From a virus (taxonomy: Duplodnaviria > Caudoviricetes), in the IMG/VR virus record IMGVR_UViG_3300020577_008200, positions 1 to 64,000 of that record: a stretch of 64,000 nucleotides of DNA. The stretch is one strand, 5' to 3'. Every line of letters begins with the position of its first letter. The stretch's first letter is position 1. Below, in pieces: positions 19,679-35,929 of this stretch. A model generated the notes under the pieces. It ran no database searches. It was not told the DNA's origin and worked only from the letters and a program-made list of their open reading frames with translations. Position numbers and translations under genes: made by a program.

Positions 19679-19696
19679 AGAAATTACCTGTGTTTA

Positions 19697-19724
19697 AATT
19701 AGTTTGGTGTAACTAATTATACCA
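19697..19724 (-). promoter_or_regulatory. Extended -10 promoter (TGGTATAAT) overlapped by an 8-bp inverted repeat
   Basis: TGGTATAAT at 19724-19716; AATTAGTT-N6-AACTAATT at 19697-19718; only intergenic gap before the 18689-19678 GT gene. Confidence 0.5.
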
Positions 19725-19730
19725 CATTTT

Positions 19731-21552: not shown

Positions 21553-22005
21553 TTATTTAACTTTCCTGTCCCTATATAATCTCTTATTATTATTTACACA
21601 ATTCATTATTCTCTCATTGTTATCAGAGAATATATTTTCGTAATCGGATGGAGCATACCATAGTCTAGTAGCTATGATAAAAACTAAATATGATTTAATA
21701 TAGGGAGACCTATTAATTTTAGCCGCATCTTCAATTGTTATATATCTATCACTATCTATAATTTCGATTGCTGCAAATATCGGGATACTATATATAGTAG
21801 ACTTATACTCAAAAAATTTCTTTTTTAATATTTCTTTACTTCTAAAACGTATTTCCGGGTCTGAACTGTGGACCCCATATTCAATCATATACGGAATAGT
21901 TTTTGGGTTAATATTATAGCTTAGATATTTAGTAGCATTTTCTCTAGTGCAGAAATCATTATCTCCGAGAAGAGAAATTATAAAAATAATTATTATTTTT
22001 GACAT
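21553..22005 (-). CDS. Hypothetical protein with hydrophobic N-terminus and HEAT-like motif
   Basis: MSKIIIIFIISLLGDNDFCTRENATKYL...SSDPEIRFRSKEIL. Confidence 0.5.
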   Translation of the reverse strand: MSKIIIIFIISLLGDNDFCTRENATKYLSYNINPKTIPYMIEYGVHSSDPEIRFRSKEILKKKFFEYKSTIYSIPIFAAIEIIDSDRYITIEDAAKINRSPYIKSYLVFIIATRLWYAPSDYENIFSDNNERIMNCVNNNKRLYRDRKVK

Positions 22006-22012
22006 TGTAATA

Positions 22013-22037
22013 TAAGCCTGTATTTTGGACAGGCTTA
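22013..22037 (-). terminator. Intergenic hairpin (terminator or processing site)
   Basis: TAAGCCTGT-N7-ACAGGCTTA perfect 9-bp stem; weak U-tract. Confidence 0.5.
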
Positions 22038-22046
22038 GTAAAAGGT

Positions 22047-22382
22047 TTAGATTTTGTAATATCTGCTGGCTCTGTCAACCAAACTTGTAACTGTATACCT
22101 AAGACTATTTGGAATTTCTGTACTTTTTTGAACAAATTTTACAGAATTCAACTCTACAGAATTATTAATAGCTTTGTTAATACCAATTTGTTTGTCAAAA
22201 TTTTCAAGTGTGGTATTACATTTACTCCAGCCAACTTTTACCTCATCGTTTTGTTTATAAGCTAGTGCTAGTCCGACTGGACGCCCATGTTTATCACGAA
22301 GATATTGGACTAGAAACTTTGGACCCAAAACCTGTTGATTTTCCTTTTTACAATTTTCGATGTATTCATTTCTATTATTCAT
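22047..22382 (-). CDS. Hypothetical phage protein
   Basis: 111 aa; KVGWSKCN...NFDKQIGINKA motif; coupled to upstream gene. Confidence 0.6.
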   Translation of the reverse strand: MNNRNEYIENCKKENQQVLGPKFLVQYLRDKHGRPVGLALAYKQNDEVKVGWSKCNTTLENFDKQIGINKAINNSVELNSVKFVQKSTEIPNSLRYTVTSLVDRASRYYKI

Positions 22383-24010
22383 AACTTTCCTCTTTTCTTT
22401 TCAAAAATATTTTTAGCGTTAGCAATATTTATTAAATGATTTGCTAAAGTTTCTCTAGTAAATTCTCCATAAGCGGCGTATGATTCAGAACTATGTTCTT
22501 CGTCTACTAACATATTTGGCAAACCTTTTAAACAGGCTCCTAATCCCAAATCTCTAGTTAATCTGATAGCTAAGTAACTATTTATTAACTCTGGGCGTCC
22601 AGCTATGTTAGCAAAAGCCCAATTTACAAATTCTTTATCACTCATACCGCTTGGAGGATTCATGTTTGGCACATTTATCTTAGCTGGTAAATCCCACTTG
22701 TCAAGAGGAATCACGGAATCGAAATAATTTTCCCAAATTTTACTAGTTTTTTCCCAGGTGTAATGGGTTAACACACCTTCTCTAGCTTTTACAGCATACT
22801 CGAAATGTTTTTCTTTTGGCATTTTGAAGAAGTTTATTAGTAAATCAACTAAATTAGAATTGTCTGGTAAGGCACGATAAGACTCTGTTCCACTATCTCT
22901 AAACATTCTGTGTACTTTAATAGGGAAACCGCCTAATTTTCTAACCACATCAGACATTGCGGAGTAATCCACAGCTATAACTGGAGTTCCGGACGCAGAA
23001 GATTCTACCATAGGCATTCCAAAACCTTCACAATTTGAGTATTGAACATATACATTCATTAGCGCATATATTTCGTTTAATACATGTGGAGGTATTCCAG
23101 CTTTAATGTTAGGTAAAATTGCGCTATGTGAACCGCACAGACGACAAGGAGCCTTGCCGTCTTGAAAGAATGATGGATATATTTCTTTACAATTTAGACA
23201 GAAATAAGTAAAGTAAGTTCGATGTGCTATTCCATGTTCTTTTAGTAAACGAGGTATATCCCAACCTAAGTCCGGATAAGCGCAATGTAAATAAAGATAG
23301 GATTTACTAGCAATCTCTTTTGGAGCCTGTTCTAAGAACAAAGCAAAGCTTTCCATTAAATCAGGATAAAGTTTTCTAACCTGATTTCTCATTACGCTTC
23401 CAATAATAAAACTGTCTTCTGATAAACCAACTCTTTTTCTAACTTCATCTTTTTTCAAAAATTTATAGTTTACTAAGTCTGCTCCCGGTGGAGCAGCGCA
23501 CTTAAGATTAGAAGGATTATTCATTTGTTTTTTGAGAACATCCAAGCCCCAATCTGTATAAGTGAAAATAGCATCTGCACTGGCAAAGTTACTTAACCAA
23601 TTATCATTTTGTGGAGCAGAATCAACTGTGGGCATATAAGCATAATTAAAATATGGTCTAGCTGGAGAACGTTCTATAAATTCATCCATCCACGGGTCAC
23701 GAATAGAGAAAACGCAATCTGGTTTGAAATCTATACATACGTCATCAAATAAATATTCTCCCCATTGATTAGTAACTTTACTATGATAAATTTGTTCAGT
23801 TATTTTATCATTCAATTTTGGAATAACGGGATAATATTTCCACGGTAAAACGCTAGCTCTATTATCTTCTGGACTTCCGTATGAAGCTAGTTCTGCAATC
23901 TCATATTTATTAGTATCTTGTAGTCTACGCAAAACTTCATAACCGTATGTAGAATAACCAGTCGAAAGAAGAGAACTTTCATTAACCATTAAAAGACGTT
24001 TTTTTCTCAT
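22379..24010 (-). CDS. GT4 glycosyltransferase with internal Zn-ribbon
   Basis: STGYSTYG, IGSVMRNQVRKLYPDL, CLNC...CRLC insertion, YVQYSNCEGFGMPMVESSASGTPVI. Confidence 0.9.
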   Translation of the reverse strand: MRKKRLLMVNESSLLSTGYSTYGYEVLRRLQDTNKYEIAELASYGSPEDNRASVLPWKYYPVIPKLNDKITEQIYHSKVTNQWGEYLFDDVCIDFKPDCVFSIRDPWMDEFIERSPARPYFNYAYMPTVDSAPQNDNWLSNFASADAIFTYTDWGLDVLKKQMNNPSNLKCAAPPGADLVNYKFLKKDEVRKRVGLSEDSFIIGSVMRNQVRKLYPDLMESFALFLEQAPKEIASKSYLYLHCAYPDLGWDIPRLLKEHGIAHRTYFTYFCLNCKEIYPSFFQDGKAPCRLCGSHSAILPNIKAGIPPHVLNEIYALMNVYVQYSNCEGFGMPMVESSASGTPVIAVDYSAMSDVVRKLGGFPIKVHRMFRDSGTESYRALPDNSNLVDLLINFFKMPKEKHFEYAVKAREGVLTHYTWEKTSKIWENYFDSVIPLDKWDLPAKINVPNMNPPSGMSDKEFVNWAFANIAGRPELINSYLAIRLTRDLGLGACLKGLPNMLVDEEHSSESYAAYGEFTRETLANHLINIANAKNIFEKKRGKL

Positions 24011-24121: not shown

Positions 24122-24535
24122 TTAAAATGGTGGAGGTGCCTCAGTGCTTTGAATATTTTTTTGTGGAGTGGTTTTGGCTTTTGGTTGAGTTTTTGCTGGT
24201 GGAGCATTATTAGTAGTATCATTTTCGTCAACAGCTTTTCTGTCTACGAACCAAAAATCACTAACGGTAATCTTGTGCTTACTTCTTTTGTCACCATCTT
24301 TTTCCCATGTTTCAAACTTAAGTTTACCTTCTAGTAAGATTCTAGAACCTTTTTTGAAATATTTTTCTAATACTTCAGCACGATTACCCCAACATTCACA
24401 ATCAATGAACATTGTTTCTTCTTTATCCTTATATTTTTCATTTACAGCAACACCAAACTTTGCTACTTTATGTTCCCCAACATCTTTTACCTCAACGTCT
24501 CTAGTTAGATTACCCATTATCGTACTCTTATTCAT
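24122..24535 (-). CDS. ssb: Single-stranded DNA-binding protein (likely start MNKSTIMG at 24535)
   Basis: MNK..IMGNLTRD, F.VAVNE, FIDCECWG, KGSRILLEGKL....WEK OB fold; C-terminal PPF tail. Confidence 0.95.
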   Translation of the reverse strand: MNKSTIMGNLTRDVEVKDVGEHKVAKFGVAVNEKYKDKEETMFIDCECWGNRAEVLEKYFKKGSRILLEGKLKFETWEKDGDKRSKHKITVSDFWFVDRKAVDENDTTNNAPPAKTQPKAKTTPQKNIQSTEAPPPF

Positions 24536-24579
24536 AATAACCCTTTTTATAATTGTGTAGATAGCTTTAGCTACCAAAT

Positions 24580-24783
24580 TTATTCTTCAATCTCAAATAC
24601 ATTAAGTTCTACTTCTGCTCCAGTGACTATATTAACAGTATCACTCAGGTCATCTTTAAACCATACTTTGATTTTCTTTTCTAATTCTTCTATTGCTGTT
24701 GGGGTTGGTAAAATTTTATGTTCTAACGAGCCAATTTTCCAATGTCTGATTTTCATATTTTCCCTAATTAAATTTGTGAACAT
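24580..24783 (-). CDS. Hypothetical protein
   Basis: 67 aa ORF packed between dnaE-C and ssb. Confidence 0.55.
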   Translation of the reverse strand: MFTNLIRENMKIRHWKIGSLEHKILPTPTAIEELEKKIKVWFKDDLSDTVNIVTGAEVELNVFEIEE

Positions 24784-25373
24784 TTCTTAACTTCAAAACT
24801 TCCCTTTTTACCGAATTCACCTTCTAGTAAAACGTTGTTACCTTCTGACAAGATATCTTTATATTTTTTATAAGTATCCGAAAATACACATACATCAGAT
24901 AGAGAGCAGGTAGCATCTGATACTACCAGAAAAGCCATCTTTTGTCCAGTATAATTTCCTATTTTCTTAATAGTAGTTACTCTGACAGCTTCAATAGTTA
25001 CTGCTAAAACTAACCTTCCTTTTCTTCCAGATAAGGCTTCTTTACAACTACAGTTAGCTTCGCTAATATCACAACCATCAACAATAGAACAATTAATAGC
25101 TGTGCCTAAATATTTTTCTTCATTATAAGCAATCATACTTGGAGTATCATTCATACTAATTATTGGAGAAGTAAGTAATTTTACTTTGTCTTCCAAAATA
25201 GCTACCCGTTTTATATTAGCGCATCCACCTCCATCTTTTTTAGGTTTGGCGGCAGCTTCAATAGCATGTACTATTTCAGTAAATTTTGAAGAAGATTCTT
25301 TAATCCATTCTTGCTCTTTATCTGTTAAATCTGAGTAGGCTTTATATTCTTCTAACATTCTAGTTCTTGACAC
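24768..25373 (-). CDS. dnaE: DNA polymerase III alpha, C-terminal fragment (OB-fold)
   Basis: EEKYLG, G.....KMAFLVVSD....LSDVCVFSDTYKKY..IL.EGN.VLLEG; own AAGGAG RBS and GTG start. Confidence 0.85.
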   Translation of the reverse strand: MSRTRMLEEYKAYSDLTDKEQEWIKESSSKFTEIVHAIEAAAKPKKDGGGCANIKRVAILEDKVKLLTSPIISMNDTPSMIAYNEEKYLGTAINCSIVDGCDISEANCSCKEALSGRKGRLVLAVTIEAVRVTTIKKIGNYTGQKMAFLVVSDATCSLSDVCVFSDTYKKYKDILSEGNNVLLEGEFGKKGSFEVKKCSQI

Positions 25374-25388
25374 AACTATCTCCTTTTA

Positions 25389-26483
25389 TTAACTTTTGGA
25401 AAAGTTGTCCATGTAACTAAGTGCCCCAACCTCTATTAATCTCTCCATAGTGGTACTACTGACCTGTGGAGACACAAAAACTAAAAATTCATACCAAGAT
25501 AAGTCTTCTATTTTTTTACCATAAGTTTCTTCAGCATTTATAATTGCTTGTCTAAGTTTATCAACTTGAGCATCTCCAATTCCTTTTATATCAGCTAGGC
25601 CAAATTGTACTTTAACCCCATCTGTAAAGAAATGTTTTTTCATACTTCTGAGGTCTGGAGTTAAAACTTCTACATCCATTAATTTTGCTTCATTAATTAA
25701 CTCTCGTATTTCCTGTAAAGGGTCTTGTTTTTCTTGAGCGTAACGTAAATAAGATGTAAAAAATTGAATCGGAAAGTGGGCTTTACAGTAAGCTGTCCAG
25801 TAACTATTCATAGCATACGAATAAGCGTGGCTAGCATTGAACGAATATCTTTGACTTTCTTTAATCCAACCGAAGATTTCTTTAGCCTGTTCCTCGTTGA
25901 CAACATTCGCTTTCTTAACACCTTCAAAGAACATGACTTCCACTTTTGCCATTTCTTCTGGTAACTTTTTACCAATAGCTTTACGAAGCATGTCTGCTTC
26001 TTGCATTGTAAAGTTAGCTAAATCTCTAACTATAAACATAGCTTGTTCTTGATAAACTAAAATTCCATAAGTCTTTTCTAGAATTGGTTTTAAGGAAGGA
26101 TGAAGATATTCTACTTCTACCATTCTATTTTTTCTTTGGCAATATAATTCTGTAAGACTCAGCCCGGTTTTAGCGTCAATACTTTTAGTACAACCGGGTC
26201 TTAAAATAGCTCCTAAATCAGCTAGGTGTTGTATACATTCAGGTTTTAATTTTTTAACCCACTGTCTACCAGTTCCTTCTAGTTGGAATACTCCTTTGAC
26301 TAAACCTTTACCTAACATATCCCAAACATACATGCATTCTAAAGGGACTTCCGCAATATTAAATTTATGAAGTGGCGGAACTATTTGATTCTTTTCATAG
26401 TATTCTAATGTTTTACCCTTTTTCGCTATCATCTCTTCATTGATATTAAACTTACATCCGCACTTCATTTGATAAATCTTCAT
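25389..26483 (-). CDS. dnaE: DNA polymerase III alpha, middle fragment (fingers + HhH)
   Basis: GVFQLEG, LGAILRPG, TYGILVYQEQAM, EADMLRKAIGKK, YSFNASHAYSY, FGLADIKGIG. Confidence 0.95.
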   Translation of the reverse strand: MKIYQMKCGCKFNINEEMIAKKGKTLEYYEKNQIVPPLHKFNIAEVPLECMYVWDMLGKGLVKGVFQLEGTGRQWVKKLKPECIQHLADLGAILRPGCTKSIDAKTGLSLTELYCQRKNRMVEVEYLHPSLKPILEKTYGILVYQEQAMFIVRDLANFTMQEADMLRKAIGKKLPEEMAKVEVMFFEGVKKANVVNEEQAKEIFGWIKESQRYSFNASHAYSYAMNSYWTAYCKAHFPIQFFTSYLRYAQEKQDPLQEIRELINEAKLMDVEVLTPDLRSMKKHFFTDGVKVQFGLADIKGIGDAQVDKLRQAIINAEETYGKKIEDLSWYEFLVFVSPQVSSTTMERLIEVGALSYMDNFSKS

Positions 26484-27207
26484 GATAAGTCTCGCCGTAT
26501 AAGTTTTTCAGATGTCGAAATGGATAGCCATTGGGATAGTGCTTGGGCCATTCAATGGGTAATTGAGGTAATGGTTGAAAGGCTACGCCATCACTTATTA
26601 ATTGATTACTTATTTTCAATGCTTCATCTTTATGAGAAGCGGAATCAGTTAGATATTTATACGGTTCATCTACGAATTTTTGAATCTCAGGATTAAATTT
26701 TCTACAATAATGTGAGCCAATATAAGTTTCTGTTCTAATTGTTGTGCTTTCATTATACTGAAAATCCTTGACTTTGTCAAGGGGAATATCAAATAATTCC
26801 CACATATCTTTTGAATTACCAATAAACATGTGGTCCCGAGGATGAAATGGGAAACGGGGATAAATGCTAAGAGTTAGTATATTATTATTAATACGTTCAG
26901 TACAATAGAAATACCAGATTTTATCTAAAGGTACAAACATATCGCTTCGTATTTTCATTACTACTGAGGAATGAATTTTATTCATACCGGCGAGCGAAGT
27001 TACTAATTGAAGATTACGATTTCCTAAACCGGGGTTGGAAGGATAATCTGATAGAACTAATTCATCTATATCCCAATCTCTATAGAGAACTTCATTCTCT
27101 TTCCAGGTAGAAAAAATTACTCTATTTACAAAATCGTAGTCTCTATATCTATTAATGAATTCTCTTGTGTAAGAATATACTGGACCTTGTATTAAAACGT
27201 CTATCAT
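26452..27207 (-). CDS. WavE-family lipopolysaccharide synthesis protein (likely start MIDV at 27207)
   Basis: VLIQGP, VIFSTW, P.NPG..NRNLQLVTSLAG, MKIRSD, FHPRDHMFIG motifs. Confidence 0.75.
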   Translation of the reverse strand: MIDVLIQGPVYSYTREFINRYRDYDFVNRVIFSTWKENEVLYRDWDIDELVLSDYPSNPGLGNRNLQLVTSLAGMNKIHSSVVMKIRSDMFVPLDKIWYFYCTERINNNILTLSIYPRFPFHPRDHMFIGNSKDMWELFDIPLDKVKDFQYNESTTIRTETYIGSHYCRKFNPEIQKFVDEPYKYLTDSASHKDEALKISNQLISDGVAFQPLPQLPIEWPKHYPNGYPFRHLKNLYGETYHEDLSNEVRM

Positions 27208-28250
27208 TTGATTCTCACGAAAGTGGTACATTTAGATAAGGATTTAATATCGTCTGTTCCAATATAGGTACAAGTAGAACGTAATCCGCCCAATATTTGA
27301 TTGATTATATTTTTAACTGGACCCTTGTATTGTATTTCTACAGATTTACCTTCTGGGGAACGATGTTCTGCAACCCCACCATAATATTTATCCATACATT
27401 CTTTACTGCTCATTCCATAAACACGAAGAGATTTTTTAACATCTTTATAATTTTCGTAACCGTTTCCAGGTAGTCCGTCATGAACTGGTTCATAAGTCCA
27501 TAATCCTTCACATTCATCAGTTCCACTTAACATATTTCCTAGCATCACAAAATCTGCACCGGCTCCAAAAGCTTTAGCAATATCTCCAGATGTTTTACAT
27601 CCACCGTCACTACAAACATGTCCTCCACAACCATGTGCAACATCACTACATTCAATAATAGCACTTAATTGAGGATAACCAACTCCGGTTACTTTACGAG
27701 TTTCACAGAATGCTCCCGGTCCAATTCCAATTTTAACTATATCCGCCCCATTTACTAACAATTCTTGTGTCATGTCTCCAGTAGCTACGTTACCAGCCAT
27801 AATAATAGCTTTAGGAAATGATTTTCTTACTTCTTGAACTCTATTAACAAAATATTTAGTATATCCATTAGCTGCGTCAATACAAATTCTATGGATGTAA
27901 GTCTCATCTTTCATATATTTTAGTTTTTCAAAATCACCATCTGTGATACCAATTGTACAGAAAGCTTGATTAATTGGATTCTGTTTGAAAAAACTAATTA
28001 ATTGTTCCGGCTTGTAGAACTTATGAAGACATGTATATAAACCTTGTTCAGATAATGCTTTTTCCATTGCTATTGTGCCAGTAGTATCTAAATTTGCAGC
28101 AATGATTGGAATACCGCTCATAGTACATTTTGCGTGTAGCATTTTAAAAGTTCTATATAGATTAACATCCGCTCTACTTCCAGTTTCACTCCTCTTAGGA
28201 CAGATTAAAACATCATCAAAATCTAACTTAACTTCGTTTATAATTCTCAA
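27204..28250 (-). CDS. guaC: GMP reductase
   Basis: KLDFDDVLICPKRS, IIAANLDTTGT, CIDAANGY, AGNVAT, KIGIGPG..CETR, YPQLSA, SDGGC, YRSPEGK-like and GGLRSTCTYIG. Confidence 0.95.
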   Translation of the reverse strand: MRIINEVKLDFDDVLICPKRSETGSRADVNLYRTFKMLHAKCTMSGIPIIAANLDTTGTIAMEKALSEQGLYTCLHKFYKPEQLISFFKQNPINQAFCTIGITDGDFEKLKYMKDETYIHRICIDAANGYTKYFVNRVQEVRKSFPKAIIMAGNVATGDMTQELLVNGADIVKIGIGPGAFCETRKVTGVGYPQLSAIIECSDVAHGCGGHVCSDGGCKTSGDIAKAFGAGADFVMLGNMLSGTDECEGLWTYEPVHDGLPGNGYENYKDVKKSLRVYGMSSKECMDKYYGGVAEHRSPEGKSVEIQYKGPVKNIINQILGGLRSTCTYIGTDDIKSLSKCTTFVRIK

Positions 28251-28713
28251 TTAATTCTCCGCCAAATGTACTAGTATATTGTTCAGCATCTTCTGAACTT
28301 GGCATCCAGTCTTTAATTTCTTGTAAGGCTTCTGGTGAAATCCATAAATCTTTGTATTTATCCCCTGAATAATATTTATCACCCGGAACAGATGGAGTTT
28401 TTATAACTATAAGTTCACTATCTTCTACAAATTCTATTCCATAAACTTGATTTGGTTCTGTGACCCAGATAAAACCTTGTTTAGCTTCAATAATCCACTG
28501 TTTACCATCAACTATTTTCATAGTGTCAAATTTTATTTTACCTTTGATTAGATAGTTAATTTCAGTCATTTTTTTATGGAAGTGCCCATCACTTTTATCG
28601 CCAGCTTTATGTTTCAAATGTCCAACTTCAAAAGCTTCGCTTATAAATGCGGAAGGATAAAAATTACCAATGAACCAGCCATTTTTCATCCAGTCAATAC
28701 TGTATAAAAGCAT
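28228..28713 (-). CDS. Cupin-fold protein of sugar-nucleotide loci
   Basis: GWFIGNF.P, H.H....EINY.I.G, IKTPSVPGDKY. Confidence 0.7.
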   Translation of the reverse strand: MLLYSIDWMKNGWFIGNFYPSAFISEAFEVGHLKHKAGDKSDGHFHKKMTEINYLIKGKIKFDTMKIVDGKQWIIEAKQGFIWVTEPNQVYGIEFVEDSELIVIKTPSVPGDKYYSGDKYKDLWISPEALQEIKDWMPSSEDAEQYTSTFGGELIENYKRS

Positions 28714-28731
28714 AACTATTCTCTTTTGTTT

Positions 28732-29916
28732 TTAGTTTCCATTTTTCATTAAACGACATTGATGCCGGCCTCCATCGAAAGTTTCTTCGGTTAGTGAATA
28801 GATAACATCTTCTAATTTTCTAGTTTCCGGAAAATCATGTGCAGATAGAGCAAAGAAGTTGGCCGCATTATGTTTGATAGCATAACCAGCGTGATATTCA
28901 TCTTGAACCAAAGCAGAGCGAATTCCTGGTATTTTATTAGCACAAATATTAATACCCTGTCCGCTACGACAAATTCCTAAACCAAAAAATGGTCTATTAT
29001 TAAGGACAAACTTTGCAGTAGTTTCTACATAAGTATTATAATCACAATCTTTATCATTATAACAACCAAAGTCTATATAAGGAATTTTATTTTTTTCCAT
29101 TATTTTCTTGATTTCATCTTTTACTTTAAAACCAGAATGGTCACTACATAACGCAAAAGCTCGCGGTTTAGCTAGATATTTGAAAGATACTTCCTCAAAA
29201 AATTTGAATTCTTCGGGCGTCCCCATAATATGAATTTTGTCGATTTTTCGATATTCGACCTCATCTGAATTTGTTATTCTGTTATAGAGAGGAGCAATAT
29301 GGGCTTCACCACTAGGATTATATTGGCTTTTTACTGATACACTATTCAGATACGCCCATGCATGTTCAGCAAATAATTTGCAACTTTGAAAACAGTAGAC
29401 TCCGACATTAGCTAAATTACTAGGTCTAACCACTTTTTCCCAAACAGAAGAAACTAAATTTTTATCATTTATATCTATATAACTATAGTTAGGACTATTA
29501 GATTTAAAAACTAAAGTTTGACCCGCAGTTTTAAAGTCATAGTTATTTGGTTTAAAGATTGGTGTAAAAGAAATATCGGGACAAAGTATAATTAAAGGAT
29601 TTTCATCATCCGGATTAATGCCAGCTAACACGGTTTCTATTGCCCCTTTAGTTTCTCGGTGAAGCTTAGTAACACCAATATCTTTACCGAACTTATATTG
29701 CAACCATTCAAACATACCGAAATCCCGGATATGTTCTTCTCTTACTACAAATTCTATTTCGCATTCTGTAGTATCAATAGATTGCATAGACCATTCTAAA
29801 ATACTTCTATCTCCACAAATCAACATAGGTTTGGGAAGTTTAAAACCTCCGGCAGTCATGCGAGAGCCGCGACCAGCTAGAGGGACTACTAACTTGTACG
29901 GCTTAGATGTTCTCAT
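28732..29916 (-). CDS. Nucleotidyltransferase fused to RpiB/LacAB sugar-phosphate isomerase
   Basis: N-terminal VPLAGRGSRM...GFKLPKPM, MGTPEE; C-terminal SDHSGF..K, D.DY, GICRSGQG..I.ANK.PGIRSA, HNAAN, F.GGRH.CR. Confidence 0.9.
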   Translation of the reverse strand: MRTSKPYKLVVPLAGRGSRMTAGGFKLPKPMLICGDRSILEWSMQSIDTTECEIEFVVREEHIRDFGMFEWLQYKFGKDIGVTKLHRETKGAIETVLAGINPDDENPLIILCPDISFTPIFKPNNYDFKTAGQTLVFKSNSPNYSYIDINDKNLVSSVWEKVVRPSNLANVGVYCFQSCKLFAEHAWAYLNSVSVKSQYNPSGEAHIAPLYNRITNSDEVEYRKIDKIHIMGTPEEFKFFEEVSFKYLAKPRAFALCSDHSGFKVKDEIKKIMEKNKIPYIDFGCYNDKDCDYNTYVETTAKFVLNNRPFFGLGICRSGQGINICANKIPGIRSALVQDEYHAGYAIKHNAANFFALSAHDFPETRKLEDVIYSLTEETFDGGRHQCRLMKNGN

Positions 29917-30655
29917 TGACTTCCTTTAACCATTGTAATACTTTAGTATGCGCATACTCTTGACTATTTTTGATATAAGATTCCGGATTATTCATTCTAT
30001 GTTCAATGAAGTAACCAGCAAACCTATCACCAGCGCCCACCGTAAAAAGAAAATTTTCTTTTTGATGCCAATAATGACTAACATTTATCCCGTCTGACCC
30101 GCAAGTATCACCAAAGAGATGAGACACGTCTTTGATTTTTTTGGGTTGGCAGGCCACACTTCCCTGCGAAGAATGCTCAACGAGCCATCCTGAAAAGTTG
30201 GAACTTGGTTCAAACAAAAAATGTTTTAAAAGGTTTTGATTATCTTCATTACTTAAAAAAACATAATCGCAACAAGCAATATTATTGTAAGCTTTTGATA
30301 AATCAAATGTAAAGTAATGTTTAGTTAAATCACAAGACTTTATCTTTGCTTCTACTTTTGTAAAGTCAATATTAATCAAATTAGCATAAGCTAAATGAAC
30401 CCAACCGTAACCAGCTTTACTATACGGACCTTCTACTGGACATTGATATCCTTTATCAATAGTTGATTCTGTCCCATGATGAGTTATTAGAATATTAGCG
30501 GTATTCTTTTTTAGAGCAATTTTAGTACCCTGTTTAATATTATGAATTCCACCATCTTGAATTATTCTTTTATATTTTCCATCATAATTAATGATATCAA
30601 TAATATCTAAGAATTCATTACCAATAACACAAAGCTTATCTTCATTAAGATTCAT
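29903..30655 (-). CDS. PfkB/ribokinase-family carbohydrate kinase (divergent)
   Basis: C-terminal TVGAGDRFAGYF anion-hole motif; DYVFLSNED. Confidence 0.7.
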   Translation of the reverse strand: MNLNEDKLCVIGNEFLDIIDIINYDGKYKRIIQDGGIHNIKQGTKIALKKNTANILITHHGTESTIDKGYQCPVEGPYSKAGYGWVHLAYANLINIDFTKVEAKIKSCDLTKHYFTFDLSKAYNNIACCDYVFLSNEDNQNLLKHFLFEPSSNFSGWLVEHSSQGSVACQPKKIKDVSHLFGDTCGSDGINVSHYWHQKENFLFTVGAGDRFAGYFIEHRMNNPESYIKNSQEYAHTKVLQWLKEVNENI

Positions 30656-31589
30656 AAGGGTATCTCTGAATTATTTTATCTTTGACTTGTTCATAGAGGG
30701 CGTCAATTACTCCATCTCCACCATTTCGGTTAAGAATAGTAGCATTTTGTTTAACAATACTAGAGGCATTTTGAGGACAGTAGGGATGACCAACTACATT
30801 TAAAGCTGATAAATCATAGTAATCATCTCCCACATAAGCTATATCTTCTAATTTAAACTTGTATTCTTCTGCTATTTTCTCTATAGCAATAGCCTTATCT
30901 AACTGTTTAGAATAATTTCTAGCATTGAAGAATGGTAAACTTCGACTTAGAGCCATCCCGGAGTTGAAGTTGTCCCCGCTAAGTAATAGAACTGGTATAC
31001 CAGCGGACTTAAACCGTTTAATTGCAGTAAAGTCTCTATCACAAAATTCTTTAGATAATACATTGTGTTCACTATCATAAGTTTTTCTTCCGTTAGTTAG
31101 GACTCCATCTACATCTAGAATGAGAAGTTTGAAGGCTTCTCCTATTTTTTCGTTGTCATATTCAAGATTTGGATAATTCGTAATTATTCCATAAGCTTCA
31201 CAAGTTGTTGACCAATCTAAATCTACAACAATATCTTTATTTCCAAAATCACGACATTTACCAGAATTTTGATGCCAGATTCGGTAACCTTGAGAGGTAA
31301 TACTCACATCATCTAAACTTTGAAAGAAGGAATGTATTTGTTTATATCTGAGTAAATATTCAAAAGTCTGCCATGTTTTAGCATGTGCTAAAATACGACT
31401 GTCTTCTAAAAATTCTCTAACAATTTCATCTTTTGGCTCATCATGACCTAAGTAAAGTTTACCATCTTTTAGGCGAATGTCAAGTTCTACATTATATCCT
31501 TTGTTAAAACAGTTCCATGTTGCTATTTTAGTATTTTCTAAATTAATATTAGAGCCGTTTTGATTAGCCCTGTGTGCATAAACTTTCAT
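30645..31589 (-). CDS. GDPD-like domain fused to KdsC/YrbI-like HAD phosphatase
   Basis: AHRAN.NG....EN...VELDI...LGHDEP N-terminus; LILDVDGVLTNG, RD..AI, LLSGD, AYVGDDYYD, GGDGVI C-terminus. Confidence 0.85.
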   Translation of the reverse strand: MKVYAHRANQNGSNINLENTKIATWNCFNKGYNVELDIRLKDGKLYLGHDEPKDEIVREFLEDSRILAHAKTWQTFEYLLRYKQIHSFFQSLDDVSITSQGYRIWHQNSGKCRDFGNKDIVVDLDWSTTCEAYGIITNYPNLEYDNEKIGEAFKLLILDVDGVLTNGRKTYDSEHNVLSKEFCDRDFTAIKRFKSAGIPVLLLSGDNFNSGMALSRSLPFFNARNYSKQLDKAIAIEKIAEEYKFKLEDIAYVGDDYYDLSALNVVGHPYCPQNASSIVKQNATILNRNGGDGVIDALYEQVKDKIIQRYPYES

Positions 31590-32556
31590 TTATCACCTTT
31601 CCATAATCTTGGTATAAATTTTCCCAACTCCACTCTTTATAGAGAGGTTCTAAAGGAACCGTTCCATTTTGGATTATAGTTTTTAGTGTATTTTTACATA
31701 AACAAATACTTGGTTCAACCTTATGAACATGATGAAACATACCATCATTACTCACCGCAATAGGGCGACCGGCAGCAATCGCCCAATCTATTACGCTGGA
31801 ACAAGCATTATGTGCCACACTATTGCGATACATAAAAACATTAGCTGTATTTTGAGCCAACCAGTATAATAATTGTTGAGAATCTAAATATTCGTGAGAA
31901 AATTCTAATTTAATTCCGTGTTTAACTGGAATTTTTTCTAGCCTATTTCTCATAGAATAGGCGTAAGACCCAGAACTATCTACAATAGTATTCAATGGAA
32001 GACGAATTCTAACTGTAGCCTCATCAAATTCTTCGTTAACCTTATGAACTACCTCATCAAAACCTTTGTGATTAAAACCAAAGCCAAAAGTCCCGATAGT
32101 ATTTTCTAGAACTGGAGCTATTTTATAGTAACCGTTTTCATCTCTAATCATATTTTCAGGATAGAAAAACGGTATAGGTCTTCCTACTTTGTAATCAATT
32201 CCATTAGAGATATAGGTTGGGTCAGGATGTAATATTACAGTATTATTAAATATCTTTCTTTCGTCATGCATGATAACAGCAGAAGGCAGTTTTGTGGTGG
32301 TTATTACATCGTTATTTAACCAGCTCATAGTTAATGGATGGTGGTTGTAGATTACAAAACAGTAAGACTTATTTTTTAATCTTTCATATAAATCTTCTGG
32401 TTTAGACGCTTCTACACATTCGTAATAGTAAAAATCTTGTTCATTATCAATCAGTTTATTATAGGATATTTTAAATAATATTCTTCCAGTCCAATAACCG
32501 AATTCATAAACGCCACATTGGGCTTTGGGCTGAACTACAAAAAGAACTTTTTTCAT
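31564..32556 (-). CDS. Glycosyltransferase-like protein (GT-B; likely start MKKV at 32556)
   Basis: CGVYEFG, IGTFGFGFNHKGF, SSVIDWAIAAGRPIAVS, WSWENL. Confidence 0.7.
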   Translation of the reverse strand: MKKVLFVVQPKAQCGVYEFGYWTGRILFKISYNKLIDNEQDFYYYECVEASKPEDLYERLKNKSYCFVIYNHHPLTMSWLNNDVITTTKLPSAVIMHDERKIFNNTVILHPDPTYISNGIDYKVGRPIPFFYPENMIRDENGYYKIAPVLENTIGTFGFGFNHKGFDEVVHKVNEEFDEATVRIRLPLNTIVDSSGSYAYSMRNRLEKIPVKHGIKLEFSHEYLDSQQLLYWLAQNTANVFMYRNSVAHNACSSVIDWAIAAGRPIAVSNDGMFHHVHKVEPSICLCKNTLKTIIQNGTVPLEPLYKEWSWENLYQDYGKVINESLCTQG

Positions 32557-32648
32557 TACAGAATCCAAATAAGAATACAAACTATTATTACAAATATTAA
32601 ATATACTAAATCATTTTTGCAGTTACATTTATGATTACATTGACTCAT
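32556..32648 (-). CDS. 30-aa membrane peptide (not in ORF track): MSQCNHKCNCKNDLVYLIFVIIVCILIWIL
   Basis: Translated by hand; fills the gap, and its TAA overlaps the next ATG (TAATG). Confidence 0.5.
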   Translation of the reverse strand: MSQCNHKCNCKNDLVYLIFVIIVCILIWIL

Positions 32649-32654
32649 TTTTTC

Positions 32655-34883
32655 TCACATTATTGGTGTAAAATATGGTTCTTCTTTACTATCGTCCCAA
32701 GACCAATATCCAGGTTCCGGCATTGCTACTAAGAATTTCCCACCTCTTTTGAGATAGTCAACATGTCTTTTTAAAAAGAAATTAGTAAAGTGCCACGGGA
32801 GTATGAGTAAGAAATCCGGCTCTTTAATAAATCCCTCAGTTTCACTAATGATTGGTATATCAGAACCAATAGCGTATTTACCAAATTTATCTTTGCTAAC
32901 TTCTAATATATAAGGAATATCTTTGTTAGTTAAGTTACACATTTGTAAAAATGTGTTACCTTTAGTAGATGCTCCAAGTCCGAAAACTGTTTTACCACAT
33001 TTGTTTATTTCATTAATAAAATTAGTAGTAACTTGGTTAATTTTTGCTATTTTTTCATTAAACTTTTCCCAATATCCGAGTTTGAATATTTCTTTCTCGT
33101 CTTCCATTGCCTTCAATGCAGTAAATGTCACTCCTCGTTGGGCACCAATATGTTGAATGTAAAGTCTGACGGAAGCTCCGTTGACATCATTGTATTCCAA
33201 ATCAAAGATTTCCATATCATGTTTAGCTAGTAATTTTTTCATTACTTCCAACGTGTAATATCCTATATGCTCAAAGCATATATTATCATAGGCATTAGTT
33301 TTAATAGTACACATCAAGTCTGTCATTTGAACAACCCAAATCCCGCTCTTACATAAGTATTTTTTAATACTTCTGATAAATTTATCCGGGTCTTCTAAGT
33401 CATAAAACATAGCAATAGAAGTGATAATATCAAAGGGCAAAGAATAATGTATACTATCGTCAAAGTAATTATTGATAAATATATCGCAATTGTTGATAGC
33501 GTACCCAGCGAGGTTATTAGCCGGGTCGTAACCTGTCTTAAAGAATTTATCTGGGTAGAACGATAAGAGCGTGCCATCGTTACAATTATGAACTCCTATA
33601 TTGTTTGCTATATAAGCGTTTTCATCTTCAACTTCAAAGTTGTAAACATTAATATTTTCTACTTCTTCAAATGAATTATTTTTAACTCTAACAAAAATAA
33701 AATTATCATTTGTTTTATACAGACATCTATCTTTATCTTCTTCTATAATTCCTGGTTCTAATAAAGATATTTTTTGTCCACTTATAGTTAACCTATAGGA
33801 GTCATTAACGAAATGTATATTCGTTGATATTCCTAACTGGATTAATAATTGTTTTATTCCATAAATTAGTTCTTTTGATACTGATGTTACTATGTATTGA
33901 TAACCACCACTAGTCATATATCTGAGATGACCATCTCCCCTCATATAATGTTTAATTAATTCAATTTTACATTCATCTGACCAATTATAAATTTCTTTAT
34001 TTATGAATTTATGATGAGAATATTCCCCAAATAATCTTTTAACTTCTGTGGCAAAATCTTTAGAATAAATTCTTAGGTCAATAGTATTTTTTTCAGGACG
34101 AATAGATTTTGTTGTATTTAAACCTAATCTTTTTGATGCATCCTCTAATTGTTTAATATAATGTTCTTCATGAATACCTAAGCATAAATTAATTCCACAA
34201 ATTAACGGTTTATGGGAATGAATATATGAGCCTTCAGCTAAAAACCAGCCATATATTAATAATCTATCTTTATCTATTTGCAAATTTTTGCTAGACTTTA
34301 TTCTTGGAATTGAAACATATTCTCCTTTTTTGAAATCTTTAATTTGCTTATATTCTAATTTATCATTAAGAATAGGATGTTCTTCAGTTGCAGATAAGTT
34401 AAATCCATGCATAGTAGATAAATTATAAATTTTACCAGTATATTTTCTAGTAAAAGTTTTTAAAACTTTACATTCTTTATTATTTGGAGTTAAGACATAG
34501 TCTCCCTCTTTAATATCTTGAATATTTTTTGTAGAATAATCTGACATTCTAATTTTAGTATCAGATGGAAAACATCCAATATCCATTACCCGTTTATACG
34601 ACTGAGGACTTTTAGCTAGTGACTTCGTCACTATATCTTGGAGAGCAGTTACCATCGTATTATTCAAACCGGAACGATACCAGTATTCTCTGTACATATT
34701 ATCAGGTTCTAACACGTTTGTCAACTGGACAAATTCGCATTTGGGACACTGAGCTAAGGCTAGTTCTTCTGTATCAAATTTTACTTTATCTTCTGGTTTG
34801 TCTAAAAATAAAGAAGGATAAATATCTCCTAAATTTACCACAGTATTTTCATATTCATTTTTACATAAAAAACATTTTGTCAT
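32655..34883 (-). CDS. NDP-hexose C-methyltransferase (Methyltransf_13/14 type), intein-interrupted (likely start MTKC at 34883)
   Basis: C..C Zn finger, L.QC.KC.FVQL, YWYRSGLN, DIG/CNDGTLL, AMFYDL, YDNIC.EH.GYY, GLGASTKGNTFL, LILPWHF. Confidence 0.9.
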   Translation of the reverse strand: MTKCFLCKNEYENTVVNLGDIYPSLFLDKPEDKVKFDTEELALAQCPKCEFVQLTNVLEPDNMYREYWYRSGLNNTMVTALQDIVTKSLAKSPQSYKRVMDIGCFPSDTKIRMSDYSTKNIQDIKEGDYVLTPNNKECKVLKTFTRKYTGKIYNLSTMHGFNLSATEEHPILNDKLEYKQIKDFKKGEYVSIPRIKSSKNLQIDKDRLLIYGWFLAEGSYIHSHKPLICGINLCLGIHEEHYIKQLEDASKRLGLNTTKSIRPEKNTIDLRIYSKDFATEVKRLFGEYSHHKFINKEIYNWSDECKIELIKHYMRGDGHLRYMTSGGYQYIVTSVSKELIYGIKQLLIQLGISTNIHFVNDSYRLTISGQKISLLEPGIIEEDKDRCLYKTNDNFIFVRVKNNSFEEVENINVYNFEVEDENAYIANNIGVHNCNDGTLLSFYPDKFFKTGYDPANNLAGYAINNCDIFINNYFDDSIHYSLPFDIITSIAMFYDLEDPDKFIRSIKKYLCKSGIWVVQMTDLMCTIKTNAYDNICFEHIGYYTLEVMKKLLAKHDMEIFDLEYNDVNGASVRLYIQHIGAQRGVTFTALKAMEDEKEIFKLGYWEKFNEKIAKINQVTTNFINEINKCGKTVFGLGASTKGNTFLQMCNLTNKDIPYILEVSKDKFGKYAIGSDIPIISETEGFIKEPDFLLILPWHFTNFFLKRHVDYLKRGGKFLVAMPEPGYWSWDDSKEEPYFTPIM
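33585..34574 (-). mobile_element. Intein (330 aa) with LAGLIDADG homing endonuclease
   Basis: Starts CFPSDTKIRMSD, block B ATEEHP, LAGLIDADG-like YGWFLAEG and YMRGDG, ends VYNFEV...YIANNIGVHN followed by +1 Cys. Confidence 0.95.
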
Positions 34884-35929
34884 TAGACTTTCCTTAATAG
34901 TTCTTTCCAATCGTTTAAGTTTCGTTCAAAAGAAAAGTGTTTAATAGCGGCCTTGCGACCGTTTTCAGAAATACTTTTAGCTAATGTTTTATCTTTAATT
35001 AGCAGGAGAAGCATCTCACGCAATTCCCTAATATCATCGCTCCAGAAACCTGAGACACCATTTTCAATAAATTTGTGTGCTTCAAAGGTAGGCATATCTT
35101 CTCGCGGACTTCCTATCTTTGGACCTACTGAAACTAGTGGAATACCAGTAGATAGAGCTTCCATAAAAGAATATGTAAATGGGCCGGGTTTAGTGCAAGT
35201 AGAGAAGTATACTCCGGCTCTCTTTCTTAGATTATGAAGTTCCGTAGGAGTTAAATTTCCAGCGGAAAATTCAATATCTTCATTCTCGAAGCCGCCTACT
35301 ATTCTATTCATTCCCTGAGTAACTAAATTATATTCCGGCCAAGCTGCATGTTGACCCCGTTTCTTCATCCATTTATTAATAGTGAGAACGTAATCATCTT
35401 CGCCGGTCCAACCTTTGTATAATTCAGTATCTACGAACGGACGAATAATAGCGTCGTTTTTTGCTAAGCGATTGATATATCTTTCAGTTGGTGAGTATGC
35501 TACAGTCTTAGTATATTTAAGATATTTACTAAAATGCATTTGAGGTTGACCAATATATCTCATGATAATTGGTTTACCTTTAATAGATTCCCAATTCAAA
35601 GTTAAATTTTCTTCAAAGTGAGCAATAACAACTAAATCAAAAAGTTGAGCAAAATCTTTTTTAACTCTATTATAGTAAGCCCCGAGAACTTCATTAATAG
35701 TTAAAGTGTCAAACTTTTTAACTAATCCTTCATAATTGTGGCCAGCTTTATATTTTTCTAATAATTCTTCATCAAACTTAATATTCAAAGCCCCATCTTT
35801 AGTTGGATGTAGAGGTTTTCGAGGGTCTATATAGTGCCCAATAGAAAAAACTTGGTGACCAAGCTTATCTAATACTGTTAACTCGTCCGCTTCTAGCGTT
35901 TCATGGCAACTTAGGTATAGAATCTTCAT
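34883..35929 (-). CDS. GT4 glycosyltransferase
   Basis: AGVYFSTC..P.P...SFMEALSTGIPLVS, FIENGVSGF, ISENGRKAAIKHFS. Confidence 0.85.
   Translation of the reverse strand: MKILYLSCHETLEADELTVLDKLGHQVFSIGHYIDPRKPLHPTKDGALNIKFDEELLEKYKAGHNYEGLVKKFDTLTINEVLGAYYNRVKKDFAQLFDLVVIAHFEENLTLNWESIKGKPIIMRYIGQPQMHFSKYLKYTKTVAYSPTERYINRLAKNDAIIRPFVDTELYKGWTGEDDYVLTINKWMKKRGQHAAWPEYNLVTQGMNRIVGGFENEDIEFSAGNLTPTELHNLRKRAGVYFSTCTKPGPFTYSFMEALSTGIPLVSVGPKIGSPREDMPTFEAHKFIENGVSGFWSDDIRELREMLLLLIKDKTLAKSISENGRKAAIKHFSFERNLNDWKELLRKV

Follow-up and report, generated by a model that had tools for sequence, protein, structure and literature searches.

A virus-borne cassette around a fused nucleotidyltransferase-RpiB protein, a candidate pathway to a nucleotide-activated sugar

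We describe a core cassette of three or four phage genes, which encode a HAD phosphatase, a PfkB-like kinase, a nucleotidyltransferase fused to an RpiB-type isomerase (NT-RpiB) and a miniature glycerophosphodiester-phosphodiesterase-like protein (mini-GDPD), the last being fused to the HAD phosphatase in the DNA analysed here. This window of 64,000 nucleotides comprises positions 1 to 64,000 of IMG/VR virus record IMGVR_UViG_3300020577_008200 (an uncultured phage; Duplodnaviria; Caudoviricetes), and the module lies at 26452-31589 on the minus strand. By analogy with characterised pathways, chances are about even that the cassette encodes a virus-borne nucleotide-sugar pathway with the scheme isomerase, anomeric kinase, terminal phosphatase, nucleotidyltransferase. 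The product would be an NDP-aldose, most likely ribo-configured, for glycan building; that the sugar is ribose is rather doubtful.

Layout and conservation of the cassette

The sequence-only reading had named five items in this span, a GDPD/KdsC-type HAD fusion, a PfkB-like kinase, an NT-RpiB fusion, a cupin and a WavE protein, and all five are found on the minus strand where it had placed them; it overlooked a GMP reductase gene at 27204-28250 that takes up one fifth of the module span. The genes are tightly packed, with overlaps of 11, 14, 23 and 28 nt and one 18-nt gap. The whole record is 73 kb and only ~48% complete, and several absence tests given below were run on these 73 kb. The features are as follows.

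26452-27231, minus strand, WavE-family protein, 259 aa (PF07507)
27204-28250, minus strand, GMP reductase (GuaC), an insert (NF003470)
28228-28713, minus strand, small cupin, 161 aa, optional accessory (phrog_24762; HxH(x4)E(x6)G metal motif)
28732-29916, minus strand, NT-RpiB fusion, 394 aa (PF00483, 25.4 bits; PF02502, 109.9 bits)
29197-29916, minus strand, sugar-phosphate nucleotidyltransferase (NT) domain of the fusion, residues 1 to ~240 (PF00483)
28735-29157, minus strand, RpiB/LacAB-family aldose-ketose phosphate isomerase domain of the fusion, residues 254-394 (PF02502, TIGR00689)
29903-30655, minus strand, minimal PfkB-like sugar(-phosphate) kinase, 250 aa (20-sequence profile, motifs)
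30645-31589, minus strand, 314-aa fusion of an N-terminal mini-GDPD (147 aa) and a C-terminal KdsC-type HAD
31149-31589, minus strand, mini-GDPD domain, residues 1-147, a helix-poor glycerophosphodiester-phosphodiesterase-like barrel
30645-31148, minus strand, KdsC-type HAD phosphatase domain (capless, subfamily IIIA), residues 148-314 (TIGR01670, PDB profile, VIA fold match)
31564-32580, minus strand, 338-aa protein adjoining the module (homologues in loci L003, L004, L045, L048 and L050)
32655-34910, minus strand, TylC3-type sugar C-methyltransferase with a LAGLIDADG intein, accessory (PF08421, PF13489 and PF08484 plus intein and LAGLIDADG domains)

The cassette is common to at least 193 other IMG/VR viral contigs and to two cultured cyanophages. 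We fetched 80 of these contigs, and the locus comparison covers 89 loci (the window and 88 related loci), with a stricter set of 48 related loci that have at least 6 kb of flank on both sides. In this stricter set the HAD phosphatase is present in every locus, and the PfkB-like kinase and the mini-GDPD in 47 each, always beside NT-RpiB. The gene order HAD, PfkB, NT-RpiB is fixed, the usual fuller order being HAD, PfkB, NT-RpiB, cupin, GDPD, and the kinase, found in 87 of the 89 loci, always stands directly upstream of NT-RpiB. Synteny kept in 89 loci bears out the earlier proposal that these genes form one functional unit. Its membership has to be revised: the invariant fifth activity is the mini-GDPD, rather than WavE (17/48) or the cupin (30/48), and the C-methyltransferase is likewise an accessory (16/48). 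Two unrelated phage backbones carry the cassette, one being that of the DnaE-type phage of the window and the other that of cyanophage Bellamy, which is T4-like and has it as genes 204-207 and 213, and glycosyltransferase islands (GT1/4, GT2, GT11, GT6, WavE) surround it in all loci examined for context.

Both fusions had been called unusual. NT-RpiB is fused in every locus, and the mini-GDPD is a gene of its own in most related loci, its fusion to the HAD being rare (7/83 loci). Matches covering at least 80% of the NT-RpiB query occur in just three GenBank phage records, which represent two phages, and full-length matches number six among 185,579 species genomes, all of them MAGs or SAGs; however, the database search returned 570 relatives besides the many IMG/VR contigs, and, judged by the refuting conditions of the sequence-only reading, the fusions are common, with no known product attached to them.

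The remaining genes are less constant. The cupin (phrog_24762, 2.7e-28; Cupin_2 structures at 1e-4) is found in 58 of the 89 loci at a median offset of -3 nt from the NT-RpiB stop, which makes it optional rather than part of the module as first read. The GMP reductase (NF003470, 457.1 bits with the cut-off at 397; its residues 1-347 align with positions 1-336 of the 347-position profile) occurs in the window only, and because it is absent from all 88 related loci we treat it as an insert outside the module. The WavE protein (PF07507, 31.1 bits against a gathering cut-off of 27; profile positions 1-191 of 305) has mostly viral WavE clusters as Atlas neighbours, and no solved relative of it was found. 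It had been proposed as the dedicated transferase of the module, a role not upheld by the comparison: WavE is near the module in just 23 of the 89 loci, and a DUF7796-like protein, for which hhalign gives a probability of homology to WavE of just 7-15%, occupies the same slot in 57. WavE is thus a candidate, non-universal user of the cassette product. The 338-aa neighbour, with no significant Pfam match, is kept beside the module within the window's own sub-lineage, and orthologues of the C-methyltransferase in 18 loci are free of the intein.

Domains and catalytic residues

Every domain (RpiB, NT, HAD with its motifs I and IV, PfkB and GDPD) has retained its predicted catalytic residues. The RpiB domain lies above the curated cut-offs of PF02502 (24.7 bits) and TIGR00689 (101.8 against 88.3 bits) and below the equivalog cut-off of RpiB proper (TIGR01120, 83.5 against 138.65 bits), above which Ru5P/R5P would be the implied substrate. 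Aligned to the Clostridium thermocellum RpiB 3he8 it keeps SDHSG, C316-R-S318, H349-N350 and R384...R388, and across 27 homologues these residues (Asp-His, the catalytic Cys, which is the base, Ser(Thr), His-Asn and two phosphate-binding Arg) vary little or not at all. Genuine RpiBs are nearest to it (3he8, 8.7e-20), and LacA/LacB and DerI score far lower. A family-specific Arg and Gln adjoin the catalytic Cys and may reflect a different substrate. The NT domain exceeds the PF00483 cut-off (21.2 bits) and carries the GxGxR and PK signature, with G15, R19, K29 and D114 invariant; its profile matches PDB 4evw at 1.5e-33, followed by ST0452, GalU and RmlA, and no IspD or TarI type is among the matches at E <1e-3.

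The kinase is a very divergent PfkB-like protein. On its own the window protein has no Pfam, NCBIfam or PHROG match (Pfam and NCBIfam at E up to 0.01), PF00294 included; homologues in two related loci, L003 (weakly) and L004, carry PF00294, and a profile of 20 sequences matches the PfkB kinases YdjH (1e-8) and MJ0406 (8e-7). D17, G35-G36 and A208-G209-D210, which are invariant in the 20 sequences, correspond to the sugar-binding N-terminal Asp, the GG motif and the GAGD anion hole with the catalytic Asp; the alignment has no conserved NXXE, the Mg/phosphate motif, and the part of it concerned contains an invariant His161. The family is rare, with only 17 representatives among 1.8 billion proteins.

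The AF2 model of the mini-GDPD (pLDDT 88.6) has as its top 22 VIA fold matches GDPDs or near relatives of theirs among the GDPD-fold phosphodiesterases/phospholipases D, together with one entry titled 'glucanase' (Z 10.4-7.8, 135-144 of 147 residues aligned, whole targets spanned). With ~147 aa against ~220-250 in GDPDs, and with most helices missing from the model, this fold match describes a stripped-down barrel. H6-R7, E18-N19, E35/D37 and H49-D50 show little or no variation, and these HR/EN/ExD/HD motifs, which in GDPDs hold the catalytic and metal residues, align to PDB 7e0v, which is also the best PDB profile match, a weak one (0.006 over 50 residues). PF03009 matches none of six mini-GDPD members even at E up to 1, and the domain of the window has no Pfam match at all.

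The HAD domain is matched by a PDB profile at 5e-28 and by KdsC/KDN9P phosphatases in VIA (Z 23.2-21.9, rmsd 1.6-2.9, 149-161 residues aligned); its DxDGxxT and GDDxxD motifs are invariant and its fold is that of a capless HAD-IIIA. A Kdo-8-P substrate is not implied by its scores, which are under the subfamily/equivalog cut-offs of both TIGR01670 (2.8e-22, 79.3 bits against 106.95) and NF007019 (65.5 against 208). Pfam scans of ten genes in and flanking the module returned no Kdo-8-P synthase family.

Proposed pathway and alternatives

From these folds, motifs, fusion states and co-occurrences we infer the substrates, order of steps, nucleotide and acceptor as follows. The RpiB domain would equilibrate a ketose phosphate of the pentose phosphate pathway with the (2R)-aldose phosphate, most likely Ru5P and R5P; the PfkB-like kinase would phosphorylate the anomeric hydroxyl to give an aldose-1,n-bisphosphate; the KdsC-type HAD would remove the terminal phosphate, leaving an aldose-1-phosphate; and the NT domain would combine this with an NTP to form an NDP-sugar, for which a ribo-configured NDP-pentofuranose is the likeliest identity. 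The donor would be used by variable glycosyltransferases of the island, WavE in the window and the DUF7796-like protein or others elsewhere, with the cupin as an optional tailoring or isomerising enzyme. As a best guess, the obligatory mini-GDPD would hydrolyse a side-product, either a sugar cyclic phosphate or a phosphodiester, or would serve the capless HAD as a cap or partner.

The presence of kinase and phosphatase together suggests that the phosphate is relocated through a bisphosphate, with an aldose-1-phosphate as intermediate. Such relocation is known from GmhA/HldE/GmhB/HddC, where a PfkB kinase, the kinase domain of HldE, phosphorylates O1. AfhE and AfhF of phages RB69, DLP3 and HY126 relocate phosphate likewise with a kinase and a phosphatase (PMC13326640). 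The scheme is also favoured by the conservation of the cassette, by the nearness of its RpiB domain to genuine RpiBs and by the best matches, weak ones, of longer kinase-family members to ribose-1-phosphate kinase and ribokinase models. The domain set agrees with the earlier idea of a pathway to a nucleotide sugar that draws on a pentose-phosphate ketose/aldose pair; the ketose or pentulose product then favoured finds no specific support, because the NT domain resembles sugar-1-phosphate nucleotidyltransferases and the kinase and phosphatase pair leads to an aldose-1-phosphate.

Several observations count against the scheme. The mini-GDPD, as conserved as the other parts, is given no necessary role; the kinase lacks a conserved NXXE and, in the window, a Pfam match; HADs of this type normally act on 8- and 9-carbon ulosonate phosphates; and the RpiB domain is below the RpiB equivalog cut-off and has the extra Arg and Gln by its catalytic Cys. 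Ribofuranose of bacterial polysaccharides is known to derive from PRPP, not from an NDP-ribose. Moreover, since R5P is abundant in cells and ribose-1-phosphate is available via host phosphopentomutase, the need for such a route is not obvious.

A quite improbable alternative, close to the 'pentulose' idea of the sequence-only reading, is that the NT domain activates the non-anomeric phosphate to give an NDP-5-linked ribose or ribulose, interconverted by the fused RpiB. This would be a pentose/pentulose-phosphate donor for phosphodiester-linked glycans, with the mini-GDPD handling the phosphodiester and the keto form serving as the C-methyltransferase substrate. TarI/Bcs1 for CDP-ribitol and a Campylobacter jejuni enzyme for CDP-6-fructose are precedents, but the NT profile returns sugar-1-phosphate enzymes and not IspD or TarI. 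Fused domains usually run consecutive steps, and here isomerase and NT are always fused; however, the bifunctional PMI-GMP enzymes (AlgA/ManC type II) show that such a fusion can also serve non-consecutive steps. The obligatory phosphodiesterase-fold protein speaks for this alternative, as do the invariant Arg and Gln of the RpiB active-site loop, which could bind a second phosphate, but the invariant kinase and phosphatase pair would be left idle. The C-methyltransferase accompanies the cassette without a nearby 4,6-dehydratase in five loci, and the window's 73-kb record is devoid of any SDR, yet the enzyme is found in just a third of the full-flank loci.

Very improbable is the production of a GDP-hexose or GDP-heptose, by which the cassette would replace ManA/ManB/ManC or GmhA/HddA/GmhB/HddC and feed the GDP-mannose 4,6-dehydratase of most related islands. 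A genuine Gmd, with 555 bits to TIGR01472 (cut-off 415), is within 8 kb in 35 of the 48 loci and overlaps the NT-RpiB start in one (L010), the NT domain has a weak HddC match (1.7e-4), and the kinase fold is that of HldE; however, the cassette is unchanged in the 13 loci without Gmd and in the window, which is SDR-free over 73 kb. Characterised RpiB/LacAB enzymes yield (2R)-aldoses, but a (2S) configuration is found in mannose and glycero-manno-heptose. Bellamy-type islands already have an HddA-like set of their own (kinase, cupin and NT), and hence the cassette is not their heptose route. Scarcely probable is pentose or nucleotide salvage by a pentose-bisphosphate-like route (ribose-1-P kinase, bisphosphate, phosphatase, isomerase) tied to nucleotide-pool remodelling, to which the inserted GMP reductase, the replication genes surrounding the module in the window and the best matches of longer kinase-family members (archaeal ribose-1-phosphate kinase models, 1.9e-9) would be suited, but those matches are weak, fall well short of the cut-off and are equalled by the ribokinase matches, the reductase is seen at the window locus alone, the NT domain has no place in the route, and glycosyltransferase islands enclose the cassette in all loci examined for context.

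A bolder form of the NDP-aldose reading is rather unlikely: five activities, borne largely by viruses, would lead to an NDP-pentofuranose that is not a known glycosyl donor (e.g. NDP-D-ribofuranose). The miniaturised GDPD-fold enzyme would be an integral step, which might open a sugar 1,2-cyclic phosphate or determine the specificity of the capless HAD by serving as its cap, and the product would decorate glycans of the host or the virion in abundant aquatic phages. If true, these phages would hold a previously unrecognised donor pathway and a new miniaturised GDPD-fold enzyme.

Comparison with known nucleotide-sugar systems

Literature searches turned up no paper describing the HAD, PfkB, NT-RpiB, GDPD cassette. 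Iyer et al. 2021 noted in general terms that cyanophage 'capsular polysaccharide modification' clusters combine many glycosyltransferases with PfkB kinases, cupin isomerases, HAD phosphatases and nucleotidyltransferases (PMC7824862); a term search of that paper gave no occurrence of RpiB or of glycerophosphodiester, and thus it appears not to define this cassette.

The type II PMI/GDP-mannose pyrophosphorylases (AlgA, ManC/XanB) also carry an N-terminal PF00483 NT and a C-terminal aldose-ketose phosphate isomerase on one polypeptide, and within one NDP-sugar pathway these domains take the opening and the closing step, to which we liken the cassette fusion. Their isomerase domain is a cupin, whereas that of the cassette has the RpiB fold, and a mutase takes the intermediate step in place of kinase and phosphatase.

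The phage UDP-D-arabinofuranose pathway of RB69, DLP3 and HY126 uses an arabinose-5-P isomerase, the kinase/uridylyltransferase AfhE and the HAD phosphatase AfhF (PMC13326640). Like the cassette it is phage-encoded, employs a HAD phosphatase and places the NT domain inside one bifunctional protein, and the cassette would share its four-step logic, from ketose-5-P through aldose-5-P, 1,5-bisphosphate and 1-phosphate to an NDP-pentofuranose. The isomerase of that pathway has a SIS (KdsD) fold, its kinase is APH/choline-kinase-like, and it is the kinase to which the NT is fused; the cassette has an RpiB-fold isomerase, which is the fusion partner of its NT, and a PfkB-like kinase. Moreover, the arabinofuranose pathway has no GDPD-like member, and its acceptor is 5-hydroxycytosine in DNA, whereas the cassette lies in a glycosyltransferase island. 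RB69-type DNA arabinosylation finds no support: no thymidylate-synthase-like gene (PF00303; 5-hydroxy-/5-hydroxymethyl-pyrimidine synthase) was matched in the ~48% complete 73-kb record, and the isomerase is not of the SIS type.

The bacterial NDP-heptose pathways (GmhA, HldE or HddA, GmhB, HldE-C or HddC) likewise consist of an isomerase, an anomeric kinase, a HAD IIIA-type phosphatase and a nucleotidyltransferase, and share with the cassette the PfkB family of the HldE kinase domain and the PF00483 family of HddC. In contrast, GmhA is a SIS isomerase giving a (2S) manno product, HldE fuses kinase and NT, and the HAD of the cassette is KdsC-type, not GmhB; none of the ten genes scanned with Pfam, within the module or beside it, matched a SIS family. 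The best reading, by analogy, is that the cassette would follow the logic of the NDP-heptose and UDP-arabinofuranose pathways with unrelated (non-orthologous) folds. On that reading the four-step pathway type is known, and what would be new is its variant with different folds and an obligatory mini-GDPD.

The six-gene block and its phage

The sugar block at 26452-31589 consists of six genes, all co-directional on the minus strand, which overlap by 11, 14, 23 and 28 nt and leave one gap of 18 nt. The window covers the opening 64 kb of an IMG/VR record of 73 kb (~48% complete), and no close cultured relative of the phage backbone was found, its DnaE piece being at most ~30% identical to any GenBank phage.

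Genes of the block at 26452-31589, in transcription order
Gene 1, minus, 314 aa: mini-GDPD (N-terminal 147 aa) joined to a KdsC-type HAD
Gene 2, minus, 250 aa: PfkB-like kinase
Gene 3, minus, 394 aa: PF00483 nucleotidyltransferase (NT) fused to PF02502 RpiB
Gene 4, minus, 161 aa: cupin with an HxH(x4)E metal motif
Gene 5, minus, 348 aa: GMP reductase, NF003470
Gene 6, minus, 259 aa: WavE-family protein, PF07507

The five items named by the sequence-only reading are all present, and the GMP reductase inside the same span had been missed. This full-length gene (27204-28250, minus) scored 457 bits, the cut-off being 397, and lies as an insert between cupin and WavE in the window alone (0 of 88 relatives); among phage DNA, the closest match was to the GMP reductase of the Xanthomonas jumbo phage Xoo-sp13 (68% over 241 nt). 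It stands apart from the cassette as an auxiliary gene, carried by the window phage alone among the 89 loci. Upstream of the block lie a 338-aa protein without an assigned family, a TylC3-type C-methyltransferase with an intein and a GT1/4-type transferase, and the pieces of a split DnaE-type polymerase (PHP + NTPase; finger + HhH; OB fold) flank the entire sugar block on both sides. The first two of these pieces are separated by the 11-kb sugar island and an exonuclease gene, a layout that recurs in the 163-kb contig behind the relative L003.

Features around the block
15234-24010, minus: second glycan block with four GT1/GT4-type transferases, one GT2 and a MobA/IspD-like nucleotidyltransferase (16112-16816)
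24122-24577: small ORF, interleaved together with PhoH with the second glycan block; its L003 counterpart has PF00436 SSB
24768-25373, 25389-26483 and 37767-39794, minus: the three DnaE-type polymerase genes
32655-34910, minus: the C-methyltransferase, split by a ~330-aa LAGLIDADG-domain intein that is lacking from its orthologues (about 400-440 aa) in 18 related loci
36273-36914: exonuclease gene
40118-40588, minus: NADAR-domain protein (4.6e-20), just past the polymerase piece
41404-42495, minus: 363-aa protein with a weak NUDIX match, likewise just past the polymerase piece

A link of the last two proteins to ADP-ribose metabolism, or to counter-defence, is possible.

Conservation and spread of the cassette

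We fetched 88 related loci, comprising 80 from IMG/VR (drawn from at least 193 matching contigs), 6 full-length species-genome matches, all of them MAGs or SAGs, and 2 metagenome contigs, and searched these and the window with iterated HMMs of each window protein. The NT and RpiB were fused in every one of the 89 loci, and were accompanied by the PfkB-like kinase in 87, the HAD in 84 and the mini-GDPD in 83; the cupin (58/89), WavE (23/89) and the C-methyltransferase (19/89) were less frequent. In the 48 loci flanked on each side by 6 kb or more, the HAD was present in all 48 and the kinase and GDPD in 47 each, followed by the cupin (30), a DUF7796-like 248-aa protein (29), WavE (17) and the C-methyltransferase (16). 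The order HAD/PfkB/NT-RpiB was invariant, and the modal operon was HAD/PfkB/NT-RpiB/cupin/GDPD. Fusion of the GDPD to the HAD is a minority state (7 of 83 loci, with ~18 more having adjoining but separate genes). Both fusions are common in nature, which weakens their description as unusual, but no product is known for them.

Two cultured Synechococcus phages also have the cassette, SynMITS9220M01 and the T4-like Bellamy (genes 204-207 and 213), as do single-cell genomes labelled Prochlorococcus and SAR116. Because the backbone of the cultured phages differs from that of the DnaE-type window phage, the cassette is a unit transferred horizontally between phage backbones. Short cassette contigs were also present in MAGs labelled Brocadiaceae, Rickettsiales, Methanobacteriota and Crocinitomicaceae (L005 to L008); since the gene order of L007 equals that of Bellamy over the cassette and its neighbours, these contigs are probably phage DNA mis-binned into cellular MAGs. 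Many relatives (L007, L097, L106 and others) carry the cassette together with a true GDP-mannose 4,6-dehydratase (Gmd) and a GDP-fucose-synthase-like SDR, as well as GT11 (fucosyltransferase family), GT6 (blood-group A/B transferase family) and a sulfotransferase, which hints that aquatic phages with such islands make fucosylated, possibly sulfated glycans.

Catalytic parts and accessory proteins

The 250-aa protein on its own had no family match in Pfam, NCBIfam or PHROG searches and has just 17 representatives in 1.8 billion proteins. Its profile matches the PfkB kinases YdjH (1e-8) and MJ0406 (8e-7), the sugar-binding Asp, GG motif and GAGD motif are invariant across the aligned family, and PF00294 is present in homologues from related loci. 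Longer homologues of the kinase show a weak preference for ribose-1-phosphate-kinase and ribokinase models. In the fusion protein, the RpiB half aligned lengthwise to C. thermocellum RpiB with all catalytic residues retained; it has a family-specific loop, C-R-S-G-Q-G, and resembles true RpiBs far more closely than LacA/B or DerI. The NT profile matched 4evw, from an uncharacterised enzyme of Vibrio cholerae (1.5e-33), along with RmlA, GalU and ST0452-type enzymes, and IspD and TarI were absent from the matches at E below 1e-3.

The capless KdsC-type HAD forms the C-terminal half of the 314-aa protein (TIGR01670 2.8e-22, below cut-off; PDB profile search 5e-28; VIA fold match Z 23). A Pfam search of the N-terminal 147 aa gave no match, and because fold searches with the full-length model returned HAD matches only, this domain was modelled separately (pLDDT 88.6). 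GDPDs and proteins closely related to them in fold, together with one entry titled glucanase, made up its best 22 fold matches (Z 10.4-7.8), with 135-144 of the 147 residues aligned across the whole of targets of 220-330 residues, and the GDPD motifs HR, EN, ExD and HD were kept in sequence alignments. The domain is thus modelled as a helix-poor 'mini-GDPD' barrel, a stripped-down version of the glycerophosphodiester-phosphodiesterase fold, and its fusion in the window provides a Rosetta-stone link between the mini-GDPD and HAD activities.

The optional cupin directly follows NT-RpiB, and by sequence its metal-type motif is nearer to cupin isomerases than to RmlC epimerases. A further window cupin of 116 aa (35926-36276) is homologous to the cupin at 13782-14132 of L007; in Bellamy-type islands, this cupin has an HddA-like heptose kinase on one side and a nucleotidyltransferase on the other. 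WavE scored 31.1 bits against a cut-off of 27, and its profile found nothing in the PDB under E = 1. It had been proposed as the transferase of the module; this role is not universal, as the same slot is filled by the DUF7796-like protein in most loci. Homology between these two proteins was not established: hhalign gave probabilities of 15% and 7% and aligned just the RSD/RFD and DH/DW motifs.

The likely product and known nucleotide-sugar designs

Characterised RpiB-family members yield (2R), ribo-like aldoses, and GDP-mannose and GDP-heptose are (2S) sugars; the RpiB-family stereochemistry thus stands against either as product. Moreover, the cassette is independent of Gmd, being kept in 13 of 48 loci without it (with the cupin in 12 of the 13 Gmd-lacking and 18 of the 35 Gmd-bearing full-flank loci, p = 0.017), the window's 73-kb record contains neither an SDR nor a GHMP kinase, and for the heptose route Bellamy-type islands already have a separate set of HddA-like kinase, cupin and NT. 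Such a product is therefore unlikely. RB69-like DNA hypermodification was set aside on the glycosyltransferase context and the lack of a thymidylate-synthase homologue in the record, which covers about half a genome. A Kdo or ulosonate product, suggested by the KdsC-type HAD, was set aside as no KdsA/NeuB-type synthase family was seen among the scanned module and flank genes or in the ten commonest neighbour families, which were annotated. A class II aldolase/AraD-like gene near the Bellamy GDPD occurs in 1 locus only and is thus not core.

Most likely, by analogy, the parts together reproduce a known NDP-sugar design, in which the isomerase, kinase and phosphatase would exchange a terminal phosphate for an anomeric one via a bisphosphate, and the sugar 1-phosphate would then be nucleotidylated by the sugar-1-phosphate-type NT. 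From the NT profile, the RpiB affinity, the (2R) stereochemistry and the kinase-model preference, an NDP-ribofuranose-type product would be the single most likely outcome, a tentative guess. Although no less obligatory than the kinase, the mini-GDPD has no place in this design, and could be the one part that is new in kind. As labile NDP-furanoses break down into 1,2-cyclic phosphates, whose rings are opened by enzymes of PI-PLC/GDPD fold, it might hydrolyse a sugar cyclic phosphate; other possibilities are that it acts on a phosphodiester-linked intermediate, as in a less likely reading in which the NT would activate a non-anomeric phosphate to give NDP-5-linked ribose/ribulose, or that it is a cap-like partner of the capless HAD.

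Iyer et al. 2021 (PMC7824862) reported PfkB kinases, cupins, HADs and nucleotidyltransferases in cyanophage glycan clusters in general terms only, and our literature searches found no paper describing the cassette or either fusion. If the proposed pathway is correct, a common aquatic-phage cassette would suffice by itself to make a nucleotide sugar out of the pentose-phosphate pool, giving glycobiology a donor sugar and a minimal GDPD-fold enzyme that are both new, assigning functions to several protein families now labelled just 'phosphatase' or 'hypothetical', and helping to explain what marine phages make with their large and variable glycan islands. Because Bellamy is cultured, cassette function is open to direct testing.

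The exchange of terminal for anomeric phosphate is established for NDP-heptoses (GmhA, HldE/HddA, GmhB and HddC). A phage version, which leads to UDP-arabinofuranose in RB69, DLP3 and HY126, was described recently (PMC13326640), and the present cassette would be the third independently assembled case of an isomerase, anomeric kinase, phosphatase and nucleotidyltransferase design. Compared with both pathways, every cassette part belongs to a different fold or subfamily, and the likeness is thus one of analogy, not of membership.
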